Positions 1-7,336 of a DNA stretch of 64,000 bases are shown piece by piece. The position numbers and the translations under genes are program-made. Numbering within the stretch: the stretch's first letter is position 1; each line of letters starts with the position of its first letter. Origin of the DNA: a phage; assembly GCA_019326865.1 (NCBI GenBank), contig GCA_019326865.1_4101.1; one strand, 5' to 3'. The notes under the pieces were generated by a model. It made no database searches, had not been told where the DNA came from, and saw only the letters and a list, made by a program, of their open reading frames with translations.

Positions 1-36
1 AAAAAAAAACACTGAAATAAAATTAAGGAGAAATAT

Positions 37-396
37 ATGTTAGAAGCTAAACAGGTAATGTCAGGTGAACATCGTGGAACTATTTTTCTAAAAGAAGATG
101 ATGTTGTAAAAATTGTAGTATCTAAAACTTTTTCCGAAGATGATGAAGTACTATTGAGTACTTTTGATGGTGAGGTTCTACGTGATGTACAGATCAAACA
201 TGAACCAGTAATTGAAGGTGGTCAGCATTTGAATGTAAATGTCTTATCTAAAGAACAACTTATTGATGCACAAAATAATCCAGAAAAATATCCGCAACTT
301 ACCATTCGTGTTAGTGGTTATGCTGTTCGTTTCAATTCACTAACAAAAGAACAACAAGATGATGTAATTTCTCGTACCTTTACAAAGGAAATTTGA
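37..396 (+). CDS. grcA: autonomous glycyl radical cofactor (GrcA/YfiD-like)
   Basis: 119 aa; C-terminus [29 protein letters not shown] matches the glycyl-radical loop (RVSGY) of GrcA and the PFL C-terminus; AAGGAG RBS upstream of ATG. Confidence 0.85.
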
Positions 397-722
397 TGGA
401 TTTAAAGCCAATCGTGGTTAACAAATACAAAGAACCGTATGATGTGTACATTGGTCGTGGGTCTAAATGGGGTAACCCATTTACCCATATCAATGATAAA
501 CAGACGAAAGCCGAGTTCATTGTTGCTACAAGGGAAGAATCAATCGAAAAGTTCAGAGAATACATATTTGAACGTATTTCTAATGGCGAAGTTAAAATTG
601 ATGATTTACTTGAATTAGCAGGGAAACGTCTTGGTTGTTTCTGTAAACCAAAATCATGTCATGGTGATGTTCTCGTTGAAATAGTGAGTGCAATACTAGA
701 TGAATTACCAGACGATAATTAA
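393..722 (+). CDS. DUF4326-family protein
   Basis: 109 aa; [15 protein letters not shown] and [13 protein letters not shown] motifs as remembered for DUF4326; start overlaps upstream stop. Confidence 0.55.
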
Positions 723-1179
723 AGATGACCTTATTAATGGTGAGGGGGTGAGATGTTCTCTTTTTGTTAGTGGGTGTAGTCATGGGTGTGCCGAATGCTT
801 TAACGAAGTTGCATGGGACTACCGAAGTGGACAAGAGTTCAGTACTGAAACAATTGATACAATTTTAGCTGAACTCAGTAAGCCGTACATCAGTGGGTTA
901 TCACTCCTTGGTGGAGATCCTCTAATGAAAAAGAACATCGAAACAATTTTAGAATTATGTAAAATTGTAAAAGATACTTATCCAAATAAAACTATTTGGT
1001 GCTGGAGTGGGTATACTTTAGAAGAGATTATGGATAATCATGCCTCTCCAATACTGGAGTACATTGATGTATTAGTTGATGGTAAATTTATTCTTGAAGA
1101 AAAGAATTTAAAATTACCATTTAGAGGCTCTAATAATCAACGTATTCTTCGCAAAGGCGTAGATTATGCATTATCTTGA
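700..1179 (+). CDS. nrdG: anaerobic ribonucleotide reductase activating protein (radical SAM)
   Basis: N-terminus [33 protein letters not shown] closely parallels E. coli NrdG including the Cys cluster. Confidence 0.9.
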   Translation: MNYQTIIKDDLINGEGVRCSLFVSGCSHGCAECFNEVAWDYRSGQEFSTETIDTILAELSKPYISGLSLLGGDPLMKKNIETILELCKIVKDTYPNKTIWCWSGYTLEEIMDNHASPILEYIDVLVDGKFILEEKNLKLPFRGSNNQRILRKGVDYALS

Positions 1180-1208
1180 TATTACAGAAACGTGGAAATA
1201 TATGAAGA

Positions 1209-1231
1209 AGCACCCTTTGGGTGCTTTTTTT
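1209..1231 (+). terminator. intrinsic terminator after nrdG
   Basis: stem AGCACCC/GGGTGCT, 3-nt loop, T7 run. Confidence 0.6.
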
Positions 1232-1279
1232 ATACTATAATAAATACACTATGGATATCTATATAAAAGGGATATATAT

Positions 1280-3979
1280 ATGGCAAATAAAATATATGGT
1301 GGCATTGATGTTACACACAATGTCACAGTAAAAGGTAAGAGAAGTGCTCAGAGCATTAATGATGACGTATTTGATGAAAACGGTAATCTCACAATAGATG
1401 CATATACACAAGATGATATGTTAGAAATGGTTGGTATGTTACCAATTTCTCGTTATGGTACACAAAACTATCTACCTGCTGGTGTTAATGGTACAACAGT
1501 TGGTTCTTCAGAAAATGTGAATTCCAGAAATACAAAATTATTTTTAGAAGATGATAACACTTTAGTAATGTTACGTCCAGGTACTAATGGTAGTACTCAA
1601 GGTGTTTATTATAGTTATATGACCCAAGCAGTAGGTACAACAAATACAAGTCGTATGGTTAATACTACTCGTGCATATAAACCCAATTACTTTGGTGCAG
1701 CATACGCAGTTTATTTGTACCCAAGTAGTAATGATATTACTTGCGGTTTAGTGAGAATGGAGAATACCGATGGTACATATGTTGATAAAGTTTTTGTGTC
1801 AGATAATAATGGTACATTGAATGATGCAATGCACACTGGTATTATTCTATCAGATCATACAGCAGTACAACCTTTTGGTGCAATACAATTTGTTATTCGT
1901 GCAGAAGATGGTGCATTATATTTTTTTAGTTTAGATACACCAAATAATACTCTTAAAATATCCGTTACTAAAGTTACTTTTAATCCAAGTAATAACCCAG
2001 GTGGTGGTACTTATAGTATTACTAGAATTACTGGTTGGACTACAAGAACTTTTTATAATGCAATGATAGCTGATGAGAACATTGTTCCTACGATGAAAAT
2101 AAATTCAACAAATGCCAATGATACTCCATACGTTTTAATCCCAAGCGGTATTATTGGGTTTGGTGTTTATATGACAGATCCAGATTTATATGTTGCACAG
2201 AAATCAGGTACATCTACATTCAAATTTAGATTATGTGGTGATATGTGGATGAGTAATGGTAGATATGACACACGACCACAACATAGTTTTAGTATGACTT
2301 TTGATGTTGCAACGAAGCAATGTGCACTCGATAATATGACAACGACTGCACCTGTTGCTGTTTATGACAATGGTTCTAGCATGAATGCAACTGGACCTTG
2401 CTTGACAACTGACCCATTTTATCTTCATGCAGGTGCACGTAATATTTTCAGTAATTATTGCTATGTTCCATCAACAGGGGATGCGTTTTGTTCATTTTCA
2501 CCAAACCTAGCAGAACCATTGAATGTATCATATGCAAAATACCCACCAAAATCTTTATTTGATTTGATGGATGTTAGAAGTGTGTCAGCAACTAATTTTA
2601 TTAATGGTGTAGTATCACCAAGATTTGGTTCAGCAGTTGGTTCATACCAAGTAGGTGTAGAGTTATTACCAAATAACAGTACTAAACAATATTCAAGACG
2701 TTCTGGTGATGGTCGTTTTTTTCCATCCTATGCTGTTCATAAATCTACACCAAACTTTACATTCAAGTCATTGAGTTATGGTACAGTTCCTGGTTATGAA
2801 CCAACACCTGACCGAAATTTCATAACAACACCAGAATCACGAATTTTTATAAGTTCAATATCTGGTTCAAACGTCACTACTAATGGTGGTGTTTTGGTTG
2901 CTGACATTAGAACATCAACACCAATTAGTTTTGATTATAAAGGTAATGTACTGAATAATGGTACAATCAGTATGTCTCAAGATATAATGAATGCTATTAG
3001 GAATTCAGAATTTGCTAAAGTTGCTGGTTCTTGGGATATATCCCCAGCATCAGTAAAAACATTATCAGTTTTCGTTCCACAACAAACTGATATTCCTGTT
3101 TTCGCCGTTCTTGCTGCAACAACTAATTCCAGAGGACTATATATTCGTATGATTGAATTAGGTGTTAATACAAGAACAGGAGATATTACAACGTGGGCAT
3201 TTAAACGTTTAGTACATGAAAGTGTTCAAGCCCTGGATTACAAAACTGATGCCGGATATTATCTTGATAGTGGAAGTATTGGTATTACTATATATGATGC
3301 TGGTTCTTTTTACTTCATTGGTGGTGGTATTCCAGGTTTCTTTCCTACAGTTGGTAATACAGCTTCACCTTTTTTTCGTGCTACTGTAGATAAAGCAAGT
3401 AAGCAATTTAATAATTTCCATATAGCTGGTTATCGTCCCATCTATGCATTAGACGGTCAACCGTTCGCTTTACCTGGTATTGGATTTGGTATTCTTCAAA
3501 GTATAGATCTTCAAAACAAAACCATTTTTAGAACATATGGTACTACATTAGAAGATTATAATGCATGGACTGATAAAGGGAATCCATTCATTTGCGTTGT
3601 TTCACAAGACGTTGCTCAAGGTTTTATTATATACTTCACCGAAGAGACACCAGTACTGATATCTGGTAAGCACTATACGTTACCAATATCAAATATTGAT
3701 TTAACAAAAGTGAAAGCAAATCCTGCGAATACTACATTTTATGTGTATATTAAATTAGTGCAGGGTATTGCAAAGTATCATATATCAACAACTGAATTAG
3801 CTGAAACTCAGTCAATATTCTGGATTGGTACAGTGAAAACTAATGATTTACAAATAACCGAAATTAATATCGTTAAACGTTCGCGTTTAGATCTGTTTGG
3901 TGCATCCTATGACGCTGCCGGAAGTTCATTCCCAGTTAGTTCTGGTTTTCCTTCAGGTTCTGGCAATGTGAATTGGTAA
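1280..3979 (+). CDS. tail fibre protein, paralog A
   Basis: 899 aa, S/T/N/G-rich; N-terminal LPISRYGTQNYLP module and C-terminal module shared with ORFs at 3990 and 4595. Confidence 0.6.
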   Translation: MANKIYGGIDVTHNVTVKGKRSAQSINDDVFDENGNLTIDAYTQDDMLEMVGMLPISRYGTQNYLPAGVNGTTVGSSENVNSRNTKLFLEDDNTLVMLRPGTNGSTQGVYYSYMTQAVGTTNTSRMVNTTRAYKPNYFGAAYAVYLYPSSNDITCGLVRMENTDGTYVDKVFVSDNNGTLNDAMHTGIILSDHTAVQPFGAIQFVIRAEDGALYFFSLDTPNNTLKISVTKVTFNPSNNPGGGTYSITRITGWTTRTFYNAMIADENIVPTMKINSTNANDTPYVLIPSGIIGFGVYMTDPDLYVAQKSGTSTFKFRLCGDMWMSNGRYDTRPQHSFSMTFDVATKQCALDNMTTTAPVAVYDNGSSMNATGPCLTTDPFYLHAGARNIFSNYCYVPSTGDAFCSFSPNLAEPLNVSYAKYPPKSLFDLMDVRSVSATNFINGVVSPRFGSAVGSYQVGVELLPNNSTKQYSRRSGDGRFFPSYAVHKSTPNFTFKSLSYGTVPGYEPTPDRNFITTPESRIFISSISGSNVTTNGGVLVADIRTSTPISFDYKGNVLNNGTISMSQDIMNAIRNSEFAKVAGSWDISPASVKTLSVFVPQQTDIPVFAVLAATTNSRGLYIRMIELGVNTRTGDITTWAFKRLVHESVQALDYKTDAGYYLDSGSIGITIYDAGSFYFIGGGIPGFFPTVGNTASPFFRATVDKASKQFNNFHIAGYRPIYALDGQPFALPGIGFGILQSIDLQNKTIFRTYGTTLEDYNAWTDKGNPFICVVSQDVAQGFIIYFTEETPVLISGKHYTLPISNIDLTKVKANPANTTFYVYIKLVQGIAKYHISTTELAETQSIFWIGTVKTNDLQITEINIVKRSRLDLFGASYDAAGSSFPVSSGFPSGSGNVNW

Positions 3980-3989
3980 TGGAGAGAAT

Positions 3990-4580
3990 ATGTCTTATAA
4001 ATTTAGAGCAGATGTGGAAGCTTATGCTTCCGTTAAATCACAAGGAAAAAATACTGGGACCACGATAACTGTTCGTTCTGGTAATGTGTATCAAGCTGAT
4101 GCAAATGGGAATGTTGATATACCAGTCATGAGTACAGATGATGTGAATTACATTACCAGTTCGTTTCCGTTATCACAATTTGGACCACTTTACAGTGATG
4201 AACCATTAGGTATTACTTCTGCGGGTTTCAATTTAACTTTCAGCAAAGAATTACCGTTATTCATGGCGGGAGCGGCGTATACCCTCCCAGCAAAAACAAT
4301 AACAGATCCTGGTGTTTCTGGTACTAATATTGAAACACATTATGTATATGTTATATTAGATGTTGGGGTAGCTGACTACCTCATTTCTAAAACTCAACGA
4401 CCTGAAAGTAGTGTTAATATGTACATCGGAAAACTAACAGTTTTCCCAGATGGCATTACAGGGGTCAGTATAAATAAAGTGTCAAGATTTGACAACTTCA
4501 GAGTAAGTTCTACAAAAATTGGTTCAGCTATCCCTATCAGTTCTGGTTCACCAGATGTGAATGGTATGATAGAATGGTAA
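3990..4580 (+). CDS. tail fibre-associated protein sharing the C-terminal module of the flanking fibres
   Basis: 196 aa; C-terminus VSRFDNFRVSSTKIGSAIPISSGSP resembles the C-termini of both neighbours. Confidence 0.5.
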   Translation: MSYKFRADVEAYASVKSQGKNTGTTITVRSGNVYQADANGNVDIPVMSTDDVNYITSSFPLSQFGPLYSDEPLGITSAGFNLTFSKELPLFMAGAAYTLPAKTITDPGVSGTNIETHYVYVILDVGVADYLISKTQRPESSVNMYIGKLTVFPDGITGVSINKVSRFDNFRVSSTKIGSAIPISSGSPDVNGMIEW

Positions 4581-4594
4581 AGGAATATATATAT

Positions 4595-7336
4595 ATGGCT
4601 TCTAGACGAATTATAGGAAACGCAGATATACTAGGGAATTTAAAAATTAATGGAAAGTATGCATTACGTTCCCTTAATGGTGTTCCTGCTGACTCTGCTG
4701 GTAAAATCACTTATCAATATTATGACAAAGCGGAAGTAAATCAGATGTTTGATATGCTTCCAGTTTCAAGGGTAGGTGATCAAGATTACCTACCAATGAG
4801 TATTAACGGAACTTTTGAAGGTGCTTCTTCCTTTTCATTTGCAAAAATAATGCAACCTTGTATCATTGAAAATGATGGTACTGGTGTAATTTTACGTGCA
4901 GGTACAAATGGAAGTTCTTATGGTTACTATTATACTTATATTAAAAATATAAGAGATATAGAAACACTAACTCAAGATAATATAATTACAACCAATACGA
5001 TGTATAGACCGTCTGTGCTACCAAGTACTGATTACATTTATGAATTTTATGGGTCAAATGCATATGAATTACTATTTTGGGAATCAACTGATAGAACATC
5101 ATATTACCTTACATTAACAAATGAAACATTGAATGAATCAGCACACAAGCATTGCAGAATTCCAAAAACAGCAATAACAAATAAACCAATATATGCACAC
5201 ATCGTAAATGATTCAGTTTATATATGGTGTATGGATTCAAGTGTATTGAGTAGTGTTCGCGGGTGTGCATTTATTATATACACAGTACCTTTAACTGCAT
5301 TTAATACTGGTTCAGTTTCTACCGTAACACAGATTGGTGGTTATTCAGGAAGAACTATAAGAGATGCAACATATACTGCATCTAATAATATTCGCGTTTA
5401 TGATAGCTATTCTATTTTAGGTTCAGGTGGTGATGCACTAATAGTATATGATAATGGTGTTTCCAGAATAGATTATTGGGAAAATAACGTATTTAATACC
5501 CAAGCAGTTCTTAGCCCAGATGGTACAAAAATAAGAGTTGCGATCTATCCAGGGTTTCGTGTCTTTACCAAAACAAAAACATCTAGTGTATATGCACTTG
5601 GTATTAGCTTTACATATGATATCAGTACTAAAACAATGACACTTGATGGTTCTGAACGTGGTCCAATCAGAGTATCAGCTAATACATCAACTGGTAGTAT
5701 AACAGTAAGAAACCCGTTTTCAATCAATATGGAAAACTTTACAGGGTTTTATGACGGTGCACTTGGCAACTATGGTTCAATCTGTCAAACTTCTGATGGT
5801 TTTGTTTTCACTACCAAAGCAAGATGGACATCCACACCAACATATGCAGTACAAACATACAAAGTTTCTGGTACACCTTATGATAGTTGGGTCGCTAAAA
5901 CACGTACTGCTAGTAATTTAAAACGTGTCGAAGTAATGCCAGTTTATGGCTCCCCTGTCGGTGAAAACTTAATAGGTGTTCGTTTCGTAGATAAACGTAA
6001 GATACTTGTTGCATGTTCTGGCACTGCTGATGGAATTTCTTATGGTTATGATAGTACAGTTTTTACTGAAATAGGTGAGAATCCGACTTATGTTTATAAA
6101 AACTTGGAACAAAATACCACAATGAATGGTTTTGCACCATCAAGTAATAGACACTATTTAAGTACTGATTACAAATATGCAGGTATGATAACATTGGTTG
6201 ATGCAAATGGAAATGTCAGCACTTATGGTTCTTCGTTAATAGAAGACATCGATAAACCAGCGTATGGAAAATTCGACCCAGTTACAATGGACTTCGACAG
6301 TAATAGATATGAAATTTCAGGAACAACATTATCAAGTATAGGTGATAATGCAATTGCTAAAGCTGGATTGTCTGGAATAACTGATCATAAAACTGTTTTT
6401 TATTATGTACCTGATACTACATATTCTAAATCGATTGCAGTCACTTCTGCATTAAACGGTACTACCAATGTGTGTTATATTATTTTTTCCGAAATATCAT
6501 GTAGTGCAGTTGGTACAAGTGGTACTATAATTTTACGTGGTATTAATGTTGATACAGCAAGATATACATCAATGACGAATACATACCAAATTTCACCAAA
6601 TGAAATGGTCAAACGTTGGGCTGGTATGACGGTTTCTAAGTTTAATGGTTTTAACTACTTAGGCGTGAACATTTTATATGGCATTGATACCCCAGGTTGG
6701 ACTCGTTATCCTAACATGATTGCTAAAGTGAAAAATGGTATTATTTCAAGTCAACGATATATGGAAACAACTTATATTTCAAACGCACAATTTGATATAG
6801 GTACAATTCCAGGGATTGGGTTTGGATATTACCAAATGAACAAAAACGATTATCAAACTAAATCAGTTTTTGCTGTATGTGGTACTACTGAAGCAGATAT
6901 GGATAAACTAATATCTGGTAATGAAACGATATCACAGTACTTAGTTGTTGCTTCACAGGATGTGGCACAAGGGTTTCACGTATACTTTTCACAAGAAGTA
7001 CCAGTTTTCTTGGGTGGAAAGTTTGCAAAGATACCACCGACTATGATAGACTTATCTACCATAAGTACTACACCAGAGAATTCAACATTCTACATATATG
7101 CGGTGATGGATAGAGATACATCCACAGCATCGTATCAGATATCACTACATCAATTATCAGAAACTATGACATCAACATACATTGGTAAGATAGTAACTAA
7201 TAATAATGGTATTGCATCAATCGAGTCTGAAAAAGTTTCCAGATTCTTGCTATACCGTCCAAGTACCCACAGTCGTGGATCTGCTATCCCAGCTAGTTCT
7301 GGGTTACCATCACAATCTGGCTCCCGTTGGAAATAA
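4595..7336 (+). CDS. tail fibre protein, paralog B
   Basis: start moved to second ATG (MASRR...), which carries the same AAAGGRATATATAT-ATG initiation region as the gene at 1280; N-terminal LPVSRVGDQDYLP module. Confidence 0.6.
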   Translation: MASRRIIGNADILGNLKINGKYALRSLNGVPADSAGKITYQYYDKAEVNQMFDMLPVSRVGDQDYLPMSINGTFEGASSFSFAKIMQPCIIENDGTGVILRAGTNGSSYGYYYTYIKNIRDIETLTQDNIITTNTMYRPSVLPSTDYIYEFYGSNAYELLFWESTDRTSYYLTLTNETLNESAHKHCRIPKTAITNKPIYAHIVNDSVYIWCMDSSVLSSVRGCAFIIYTVPLTAFNTGSVSTVTQIGGYSGRTIRDATYTASNNIRVYDSYSILGSGGDALIVYDNGVSRIDYWENNVFNTQAVLSPDGTKIRVAIYPGFRVFTKTKTSSVYALGISFTYDISTKTMTLDGSERGPIRVSANTSTGSITVRNPFSINMENFTGFYDGALGNYGSICQTSDGFVFTTKARWTSTPTYAVQTYKVSGTPYDSWVAKTRTASNLKRVEVMPVYGSPVGENLIGVRFVDKRKILVACSGTADGISYGYDSTVFTEIGENPTYVYKNLEQNTTMNGFAPSSNRHYLSTDYKYAGMITLVDANGNVSTYGSSLIEDIDKPAYGKFDPVTMDFDSNRYEISGTTLSSIGDNAIAKAGLSGITDHKTVFYYVPDTTYSKSIAVTSALNGTTNVCYIIFSEISCSAVGTSGTIILRGINVDTARYTSMTNTYQISPNEMVKRWAGMTVSKFNGFNYLGVNILYGIDTPGWTRYPNMIAKVKNGIISSQRYMETTYISNAQFDIGTIPGIGFGYYQMNKNDYQTKSVFAVCGTTEADMDKLISGNETISQYLVVASQDVAQGFHVYFSQEVPVFLGGKFAKIPPTMIDLSTISTTPENSTFYIYAVMDRDTSTASYQISLHQLSETMTSTYIGKIVTNNNGIASIESEKVSRFLLYRPSTHSRGSAIPASSGLPSQSGSRWK

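Follow-up and report, generated by a model that had tools for sequence, protein, structure and literature searches.

The first gene of the window, by which we mean the whole 64,000-nt stretch of phage DNA analysed, encodes a small protein that is probably a phage autonomous glycyl-radical cofactor, an orthologue of bacterial GrcA (YfiD) and of T4 Vs.6 (Y06I), likely to repair the pyruvate formate-lyase (PFL) of the host with the help of the host activase PflA. The phage GrcA family has been known since 2001 and the finding, while correct, is in this respect ordinary; the literature searched yielded nothing relevant on phage GrcA beyond T4 Y06I. What goes further is the location of the gene, which lies in one unit with a DUF4326 gene and nrdG (Table 1).

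Table 1. Features at the start of the window, with positions counted from its first nucleotide
Feature	Position	Strand	Details
In-frame TGA stop	13..15	+	24 nt before ATG37, same frame; read from the sequence
Shine-Dalgarno AAGGAG	25..30	+	6 nt before ATG37; same site annotated as ribosome-binding site in UE-S1
grcA-like gene	37..396	+	119 aa; GrcA/YfiD/T4 Vs.6 (Y06I) family, autonomous glycyl-radical cofactor
RVSGY glycyl-radical loop	307..321	+	Gly94 codon 316..318, equivalent of PflB Gly734 and GrcA Gly102 (alignments)
DUF4326 gene	396..722	+	108 aa; Pfam PF14216 1.7e-24, phrog_464
nrdG, class III ribonucleotide reductase activase	700..1179	+	159 aa; TIGR02491, Pfam Fer4_12
Intrinsic-terminator-like hairpin GCACCC-TTT-GGGTGC with T7 run	1204..1231	+	fold -16.6 kcal/mol, z = -5.4

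That the ORF is a stand-alone GrcA-like gene, as the first-pass annotation had proposed, is borne out by its own AAGGAG sequence, by the TGA codon upstream in the same frame, because of which the ORF can not extend further upstream without splicing, and by its matches in Pfam, the PDB and phrog_1209. The product matches Pfam Gly_radical (PF01228) at 1e-17, with 65 bits against a cut-off of 22, and phrog_1209 over its full length at 2e-51, while the PDB search returned PflB at 1.6e-30 and GrcA (6OWR) at 1.4e-29. Judged from sequence, the profile and sequence matches of this ORF and of the DUF4326 and nrdG ORFs lie far beyond chance, and the fold to be expected of the grcA-like protein is already answered by its identity to the solved structures of PflB and GrcA.

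Among eight aligned members of the family the residues of the RVSGY loop are invariant in all eight, as are 36 columns of the alignment altogether, and a 14-residue glycine region of the window protein aligns to that of PflB at Gly734 and of GrcA at Gly102. This loop had initially been described as unlike that of NrdD, the class III reductase itself, which does not hold, since the Asteriusvirus NrdD reads RRVSGYL and so contains the same pentapeptide. The assignment to the PFL type comes instead from the flanks: in a comparison limited to sequence, 49 of the 61 C-terminal residues are identical to E. coli PflB, including 21 of the 26 that begin with the radical glycine, against 9 of 30 identical residues when the surroundings of the glycine are compared with the phage NrdD.

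The similarity to PflB (PDB 1H16 and others) amounts to 66% identity over residues 669-758, with Gly734 and its loop included. Full-length pyruvate formate-lyase is an enzyme of about 760 aa with a ten-stranded barrel and the catalytic residues Cys418/Cys419; unlike PflB, the window protein has neither this barrel nor these cysteines, and of the 744 positions in the full-length PFL profile TIGR01255 its match spans 673-743 only, with a score of 94 bits (cut-off 994). Given its 119 aa and the missing barrel and cysteines, the name "pyruvate formate-lyase", under which relatives are deposited in GenBank, including a UE-S1 protein 100% identical to the one described here, is a misnomer, and the gene of the relatives should properly be named autonomous glycyl radical cofactor (GrcA/Y06I family).

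The best NCBIfam match is the GrcA equivalog TIGR04365 (1.7e-36), with a score (125.3 bits) that lies below the equivalog cut-off of 170. The same profile gives 151 bits for T4 Vs.6, 123 for the GrcA of a T5-like phage, 135.5 for the copy in an Erwinia phage and 234 for E. coli GrcA; as the biochemically validated T4 protein and other phage copies all score below the cut-off, it leaves out the whole phage subfamily. In the alignment to this profile residues 25-118 correspond to profile positions 30-125, and no similarity to bacterial GrcA, as represented by the profile, was detected in residues 1-24. According to PMC8683613, the N-terminal region of YfiD matters for activation, and with residues 1-24 of the phage protein unmatched the choice of activase could therefore differ.

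Among the closest known proteins is T4 Vs.6, which has 120 aa, is 58% identical along its whole length, the N-terminal QxxxGxHxGTI...ARIIVSKTFxED region included, and belongs to the same phrog_1209; besides vs.6, T4, a virulent coliphage, carries nrdD and nrdG as well. The differences are that the T4 gene lies in the vs/regB/denV region, far from nrdG, and that the C-terminal 61 residues of Vs.6 are identical to E. coli GrcA at 59 positions, whereas the window protein is about equidistant from PflB and GrcA (47/61 for the latter). E. coli GrcA, which is likewise small and stand-alone, is 50% identical overall, with a 13-residue stretch of the glycine loop and the GGQHLNVNV strand conserved in the window protein; apart from the profile score and the N-terminus, it differs in that the host gene is monocistronic and located beside ung, as opposed to an nrd operon in the phage. 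In the account given in PMC8683613, which cites Wagner et al. 2001, YfiD and T4 Y06I are activated by PFL-AE (that of the host in the case of Y06I) and rescue PFL cleaved by oxygen.

Modelled on these characterised homologues (YfiD and T4 Y06I), the action of the phage protein would be as follows. In a micro-oxic host, activated PflB would be cut by oxygen at its radical Gly734; the phage protein, a duplicate of the C-terminal glycyl-radical domain of PflB, would have the radical put on its Gly94 by host PflA and, once activated, would dock into the cleaved PflB and restore catalysis. The flow from pyruvate to acetyl-CoA and formate, and thus ATP production, would in this way be kept up during infection.

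The DUF4326 product scores 86.7 bits with PF14216 (cut-off 25), shares 92-99% identity with the compared Asteriusvirus orthologues (92.6% with that of phage A4), all of which begin MDLKP, and has no relative of solved structure in the PDB at E <= 1; its family has been predicted to comprise enzymes of the rhodanese-phosphatase superfamily acting on ADP-ribose derivatives (PMC9503650). The earlier observation that this gene overlaps both of its neighbours was accurate, as the ATG start used in relatives overlaps the stop codon of the grcA-like gene by 1 nt and the other end overlaps nrdG by 23 nt. An alternative TTG start at position 393 would give an overlap of 4 nt with the grcA-like gene. 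The nrdG product scores 194.9 bits with TIGR02491 (cut-off 126.1) and matches Fer4_12 at 7e-52, has its radical-SAM cysteines in the arrangement C26-x3-C30-x2-C33 (CX3CX2C), and shares its MNY start with relatives.

The grcA-DUF4326-nrdG unit, predicted to be co-transcribed, ends at the hairpin that follows nrdG. This hairpin was missed by the terminator scan because its stem runs into the T-run, and folding was used in its place; in UE-S1 the corresponding site carries a terminator annotation and was picked up by the scan. A promoter scan was uninformative, with 6 sites in the window against 6.3 expected from shuffles and 12 against 18 in UE-S1.

The source of the window is a 121Q-like jumbo coliphage, an Asteriusvirus. 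A complete nrdD lies directly upstream of the grcA-like gene in its closest relatives (UE-S1, which is 96.9% identical to the window over positions 2..1146, TH47, ph0011 and A4), in agreement with the original suggestion that nrdD may be located before position 1. In UE-S1 this nrdD stops about 175 nt ahead of the start codon of the grcA-like gene. The NrdD encoded there (about 601 aa) has its own zinc ribbon, RRVSGYL glycine site and stop codon, matches T4 NrdD at 8e-167 and keeps the NCC and PMGCRSF motifs; in TH47 its gene is interrupted by a GIY-YIG ORF. The predicted co-transcription with DUF4326 and nrdG, together with the place just after nrdD, suggests that grcA is part of a module for anaerobic dNTP synthesis in this lineage.

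Homologues of the GrcA family were found in 1597 phage records, many of them already annotated as GrcA, and the hosts of these phages (Escherichia, Salmonella, Klebsiella, Aeromonas, Vibrio and Erwinia) are facultative anaerobes. Linkage to the nrd genes is uncommon: nrdD or nrdG was nearby in only 7 of 80 sampled phage grcA loci, the other 73 having no nrdG within 8 kb. The order nrdD-grcA-...-nrdG is common to the three jumbo-phage groups sampled; an Erwinia Eneladusvirus and a 345,809-bp contig from IMG/VR show it, with proteins 64-74% identical to that of the window. The Erwinia phage differs in that nrdD is followed by three additional ORFs and nrdG is preceded by an ORF other than DUF4326. 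Divergence from the Erwinia phage is congruent across the genes, with identities of 72.5% for NrdD, 72.4% for NrdG and 63.6% for GrcA. Aeromonas phiAS5-like phages, which are T4-like, also have grcA linked to nrdDG, in the different order nrdD-nrdG-grcA-nrdC-nrdH and with 43-47% identity; in these phages the linkage arose separately.

Two reasons for the location of grcA may be put forward. One is co-expression under low oxygen; the other is that formate made by PFL would serve as the reductant of a class III ribonucleotide reductase of the T4/E. coli type, formate being the reductant of NrdD of the E. coli, T4 and L. lactis type (PMC4493059). We infer the formate rationale from these relationships and regard it as plausible, though the 73 of 80 phage loci unlinked to nrdDG count against it. 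That the place of grcA within the nrdD-nrdG operon reflects real functional coupling, through formate supply for the class III reductase, cross-activation by NrdG or both, seems to us unlikely; under the first form, host PFL would be repaired to secure the obligatory reductant of the phage enzyme.

Cross-activation taken by itself, meaning that the grcA-like protein would be a substrate of the phage NrdG instead of or besides host PflA, is doubtful, though it would make phage PFL repair independent of the host activase. It would fit with the presence of both genes in one operon with a single terminator, with linkage to nrdG in two gene orders (jumbo phages and Aeromonas phiAS5-like phages) and with the RVSGY shared by the two proteins, as an activase tuned to RRVSGYL might accept RVSGYA. 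Outside this pentapeptide, however, the surroundings of the glycine differ as described above, T4 Y06I is activated by the PFL-AE of the host and its gene is distant from nrdG, and the large majority of phage loci have no nrdG in the vicinity. A T5-like phage has grcA and nrdD but lacks nrdG over the 57 kb examined, grcA is present in 288 Salmonella phage records as opposed to 126 with nrdG, and no consistent difference was found between the NrdG proteins of grcA-positive and grcA-negative Asteriusviruses, with TH47 being grcA-positive yet having the 156-aa type of NrdG. The first-pass annotation had taken the adjacent activase to suggest that the phage maintains glycyl-radical enzymes during infection. 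Such upkeep is the accepted reading for T4 Y06I (Wagner et al. 2001, as cited in PMC8683613), and this part of the claim stands; the neighbouring NrdG is probably not the cognate activase, given the use of host PFL-AE by Y06I, the linkage of only 7 of 80 loci and the T5-like phage.

Purifying selection acts on the grcA-like gene, with an overall dN/dS of 0.11-0.13 (against ph0011 and A4), unevenly distributed between its halves. The N-terminal half, which diverges from bacterial GrcA, evolves faster (dN/dS 0.15-0.6), and this, along with the retained activase recognition motif RVSGYAV, would be in keeping with a decoy or modulator soaking up PflA or occupying PFL, by which host fermentation would be redirected or damped. 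Such a role is nevertheless very improbable, since within the genus the C-terminal half is under very strong constraint (dN/dS 0.01-0.07) that extends over the whole PFL-fitting domain, as do the invariant columns, and not over the motif alone, and since the T4 homologue, in the cited account, restores PFL activity.

Even less probable is a protein that replaces the glycyl-radical domain of the phage NrdD after oxygen cleavage in place of that of PFL. The position of the gene between nrdD and nrdG and the RVSGY motif common to both proteins would be in line with it, and the existence of spare parts for other glycyl-radical enzymes has been speculated upon by authors in the field (PMC8683613). 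Against this, a forced alignment with the C-terminus of NrdD gives 25% identity, compared with the 49 of 61 residues shared with PflB; the grcA-like protein has, by its translation, no cysteines and hence no CxxC...CxxC zinc ribbon of the NrdD type ahead of the glycine loop; its closest homologues, T4 Vs.6 and GrcA, work on PFL; and the family also occurs in phages in which the gene lies away from nrdD. The missing zinc ribbon, the 25% identity and the complete nrdD of the relatives also rule out a C-terminal fragment or exon of NrdD.

The weakest alternative, regarded from the outset as the one that would undo the reading of a stand-alone gene, takes the ORF for no more than the C-terminal part, as an exon or fragment, of an nrdD or pfl gene that is split and runs beyond the start of the window, and it can be effectively dismissed. 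In its favour, the window begins only 36 nt before the ORF, leaving the upstream gene outside, introns and homing endonucleases are known to accumulate in the nrd genes of large phages, and nrdD of TH47 is itself broken by the GIY-YIG ORF. Against it speak the in-frame TGA, the separate ribosome-binding site, the nrdD that is whole in all four relatives, where it has a glycine site and a stop codon of its own, and the conserved N-terminal domain that the protein has in common with T4 Vs.6, itself stand-alone; Rfam introns were found neither in the window (gathering thresholds) nor in the TH47 locus (E <= 0.01).

As regards the origin of the gene, about 33 of 38 Asteriusvirus records do not contain it, which indicates that it is dispensable. 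A recent insertion into Asteriusvirus is less likely than ancestral presence followed by loss, in view of the same gene order and the congruent divergence in Eneladusvirus and the 345.8-kb contig. In an alignment of grcA-positive and grcA-negative junctions the gene is either cleanly there or gone without a remnant, and the C-terminal tail of NrdD differs, so that recombination is also involved. Recent capture from the host is rejected, as identity to E. coli grcA at the DNA level is about 71% over 172 nt, in the 3' half alone, and no E. coli genome holds at least 80% of the grcA-like query.

To our knowledge, the GrcA-type "spare part" is the only such repair system for a radical enzyme, and the gene described here, probably a host PFL repair factor, adds a further lineage of large coliphages to its carriers. 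This supports the view that phages of gut facultative anaerobes invest in host fermentation at oxic-anoxic interfaces. Only the recurrent linkage of grcA with nrdD and nrdG goes beyond textbook knowledge; it suggests a testable chain leading from PFL repair through formate to anaerobic dNTP synthesis, and offers a natural system in which to ask if the activase of a ribonucleotide reductase can also work on a glycine loop of the PFL type.

Three closely packed plus-strand genes fill the opening 1.2 kb of the window. Their profile matches are all unambiguous, and together with their signals they bear out the first-pass annotation of a GrcA-like ORF lying two genes upstream of nrdG. The nrdG product scored 195 bits against the NrdG equivalog TIGR02491 (cut-off 126). 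The intervening DUF4326 gene overlaps both neighbours, as had been described: its ATG at 396, the start in relatives, overlaps the preceding TGA of the grcA-like ORF by one base (an alternative TTG start at 393 gives a 4-nt overlap), and the overlap with nrdG is 23 nt. The UE-S1 counterpart of the closing hairpin is an annotated terminator, also detected by a terminator scan. Neither tRNA nor tmRNA genes were detected by ARAGORN across the 64-kb window, and every Rfam family stayed below its gathering score there.

Genes and signals at the start of the window
Feature	Position	Strand	Remarks
In-frame TGA	13..15	+	upstream of grcA-like ORF
AAGGAG	25..30	+	precedes grcA-like ORF
grcA-like ORF	37..396	+	119 aa; Gly_radical match 1e-17
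DUF4326 gene	396..722	+	DUF4326 match 1.7e-24
nrdG	700..1179	+	Fer4_12 match 7e-52
Strong hairpin and T-run	1204..1231		-16.6 kcal/mol, z = -5.4; closes grcA-DUF4326-nrdG unit

The best hit of the 119-aa protein was the NCBIfam GrcA equivalog TIGR04365 (1.7e-36), at 125 bits and thus below the curated cut-off of 170 bits, a threshold that leaves out the phage subfamily: the T4 protein, which has been validated biochemically, also falls short of it at 151 bits, as do the copies from T5-like and Erwinia phages. The protein also matched phage family phrog_1209 along its whole length (2e-51), residues 669-758 of E. coli PflB in the PDB (1.6e-30) and the GrcA NMR structure 6OWR (1.4e-29). Its last 61 residues are identical to PflB at 49 positions and to GrcA at 47, and from the radical glycine onward 21 of 26 residues agree with PflB, while the region around the glycine shares 9 of 30 residues with phage NrdD, essentially RVSGY alone. 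The earlier contrast between this RVSGY and an NrdD-type loop does not hold, as NrdD of the relatives also carries RVSGY; the motif is therefore no discriminator, and the PFL-type character of the ORF sits in its flanks. The UE-S1 protein, 100% identical, carries the database name "pyruvate formate-lyase"; this is a misnomer, as the protein spans no more than the final ~10% of PFL. Recent capture from the host was rejected (DNA similarity to host grcA of ~71%, over 172 nt only).

Homologues were found by tblastn in 1597 phage records, including T4-like phages (57.5% identity for T4 vs.6, whose product is Y06I), T5-like phages (67% across the C-terminal 90 residues), the Erwinia jumbo phage pEa_SNUABM_12 (64%) and Klebsiella, Enterobacter, Aeromonas and Vibrio phages, many already annotated as "autonomous glycyl radical cofactor GrcA". 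To our knowledge, YfiD and Y06I are still the only validated spare parts. According to Andorfer et al. 2021 (PMC8683613), who cite Wagner et al. 2001, PFL activase installs the glycyl radical of both, and both restore the activity of oxygen-cleaved PFL. Extrapolating activation and PFL rescue from these homologues to a gene whose identity, autonomy, conservation and synteny are directly observed, we consider it probable that the ORF is a phage spare part of the GrcA/Y06I type, which would be activated by host PflA, dock into oxygen-cleaved host PflB and so sustain fermentative acetyl-CoA and formate output during low-oxygen infection, its gene being expressed along with those of the anaerobic ribonucleotide reductase.

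Megablast assigns the window to the genus Asteriusvirus (121Q/PBECO4-like jumbo coliphages of ~350 kb), with UE-S1 as the top match (window 2..1146, 96.9% identity). Within this genus the grcA-like gene is an indel, present in ~5 of 38 records (UE-S1, TH47, ph0011, A4 and one more), and in 121Q and vB_Ec-M-J nrdD is directly followed by DUF4326, without grcA. The order nrdD-grcA-DUF4326-nrdG is found in an IMG/VR contig of 345,809 bp (GrcA 74%, DUF4326 81% and NrdG 74% identical) and recurs with extra ORFs in Erwinia Eneladusvirus (NrdD 72.5%, NrdG 72.4%, GrcA 63.6%); this congruent divergence points to the position of grcA being ancestral, with later loss in most Asteriusviruses. The NrdD C-terminal tail reads …NSRPFNKGKQ[A/D]EVIQRI… in grcA-positive phages (L001, L002, which is UE-S1, and L010) and …SSRGFNKGKQQECCERIQHK in grcA-negative ones (L003 and L012, the latter vB_Ec-M-J), a difference suggesting that the presence/absence boundary falls within the 3'-terminal part of nrdD and that recombination is involved.

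Across phages such linkage is the exception. Aeromonas phiAS5-like T4 relatives have another linked order (nrdD-nrdG-grcA-nrdC-nrdH); at only 7 of the 80 IMG/VR loci does nrdD or nrdG lie no more than 8 kb from grcA. T4 vs.6 is located in the vs/regB region and T5-like grcA among tRNA genes, and in the T5-like genome examined nrdD is ~26 kb from grcA, and the 57 kb that were checked lack nrdG; among Salmonella phage records, grcA is found in 288 and nrdG in 126. Because linkage is rare and grcA is found without nrdG, a general dependence of phage grcA on phage NrdG is unlikely. Cross-activation of the spare part by phage NrdG is a doubtful reading, given that most phage grcA loci lack nearby nrdD or nrdG and that the T4 precedent is host PflA, which is the activase to be expected here by analogy.

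Nei-Gojobori comparison with ph0011 and A4 gave a dN/dS of 0.11-0.13 for the whole gene, 0.01-0.07 for the C-terminal half and ~0.15 for the N-terminal half, and 36 columns are invariant in an alignment of eight distant family members, E. coli GrcA among them. Strong constraint thus covers the entire glycyl-radical domain, beyond the activase recognition motif, which fits a part shaped for the PFL active site and makes it very improbable that the protein merely serves as a decoy for PFL or PflA or modulates them. Even less probable is a spare part serving NrdD instead of PFL.

That nrdD might lie upstream of position 1 holds for the relatives, though the gene is not visible in the window itself: it is directly upstream of the grcA-like gene and complete (~601 aa) in UE-S1, TH47, ph0011 and A4 (4/4), with a full-length match to T4 NrdD (8e-167), NCC and PMGCRSF active-site motifs, a CxxC...CxxC zinc ribbon, and its own glycine loop (RRVSGYL) and stop codon. 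This rules out, for practical purposes, what would have overturned the first-pass annotation, namely that the ORF is a split gene's C-terminal exon, and Rfam detected no intron in the window (gathering thresholds) or the TH47 locus (E <= 0.01).

In UE-S1 (4862..5035, running into window 1..36) a 175-nt spacer with two hairpins, which may serve as an internal terminator or in regulation, separates the nrdD stop from the grcA start; the window holds just its last 36 nt. It is typical of the UE-S1/TH47/window subgroup, with only 9-11 nt there in ph0011 and A4.

In TH47 (MT446416.1, flagged UNVERIFIED) nrdD (80..2371) is broken between GRFNLG and VVSINLP by a ~1.1 kb insert carrying a 279-aa GIY-YIG and HTH homing-endonuclease-like ORF (624..1463); Rfam found no group I intron in it at E <= 0.01, which leaves an unrecognised intron or a "gene in pieces" reductase as the two readings. 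Two further ORFs are absent from the window: one of 328 aa in TH47 (3221..4207) between DUF4326 and nrdG, with a treble-clef zinc-finger match (DUF4379), and one of 396 aa in vB_Ec-M-J (3304..4494, minus strand) between nrdG and a large structural gene, a further indel at the module edge. The nrd module has the appearance of an insertion hotspot for mobile DNA. Downstream, an 899-aa protein (1280..3979; phrog_3573, no Pfam hit) and a 196-aa protein (3990..4580) have similar tails, …SSGFPSGSGNVNW and …SSGSPDVNGMIEW respectively, and resemble paralogous modules of a fibre or structural kind; a ph0011 orthologue bears a doubtful "T5orf172" note.

DUF4326 directly precedes nrdG in the Asteriusvirus relatives and the IMG/VR contig, an unrelated ORF taking this slot in the Erwinia phage. 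No solved-structure relative of the window gene was found at E <= 1; Iyer and Aravind predicted that the family belongs to the rhodanese-phosphatase superfamily and that its enzymes act on ADP-ribose derivatives (PMC9503650, PMC7824862). The "NrdA-like" label in some GenBank records and one PHROG appears unfounded.

As a whole, the initial finding is correct and its interpretation broadly right, though the gene family is already known and widely annotated in phages; only the recurrent nrdD/nrdG linkage, with the formate-supply hypothesis it suggests, is modestly new. PFL is the cell's formate source. NrdD of the relatives is of the T4/E. coli type, which uses formate as reductant (PMC4493059), and a supply of PFL-derived formate to NrdD may be the reason for the linkage of grcA to the nrd genes.
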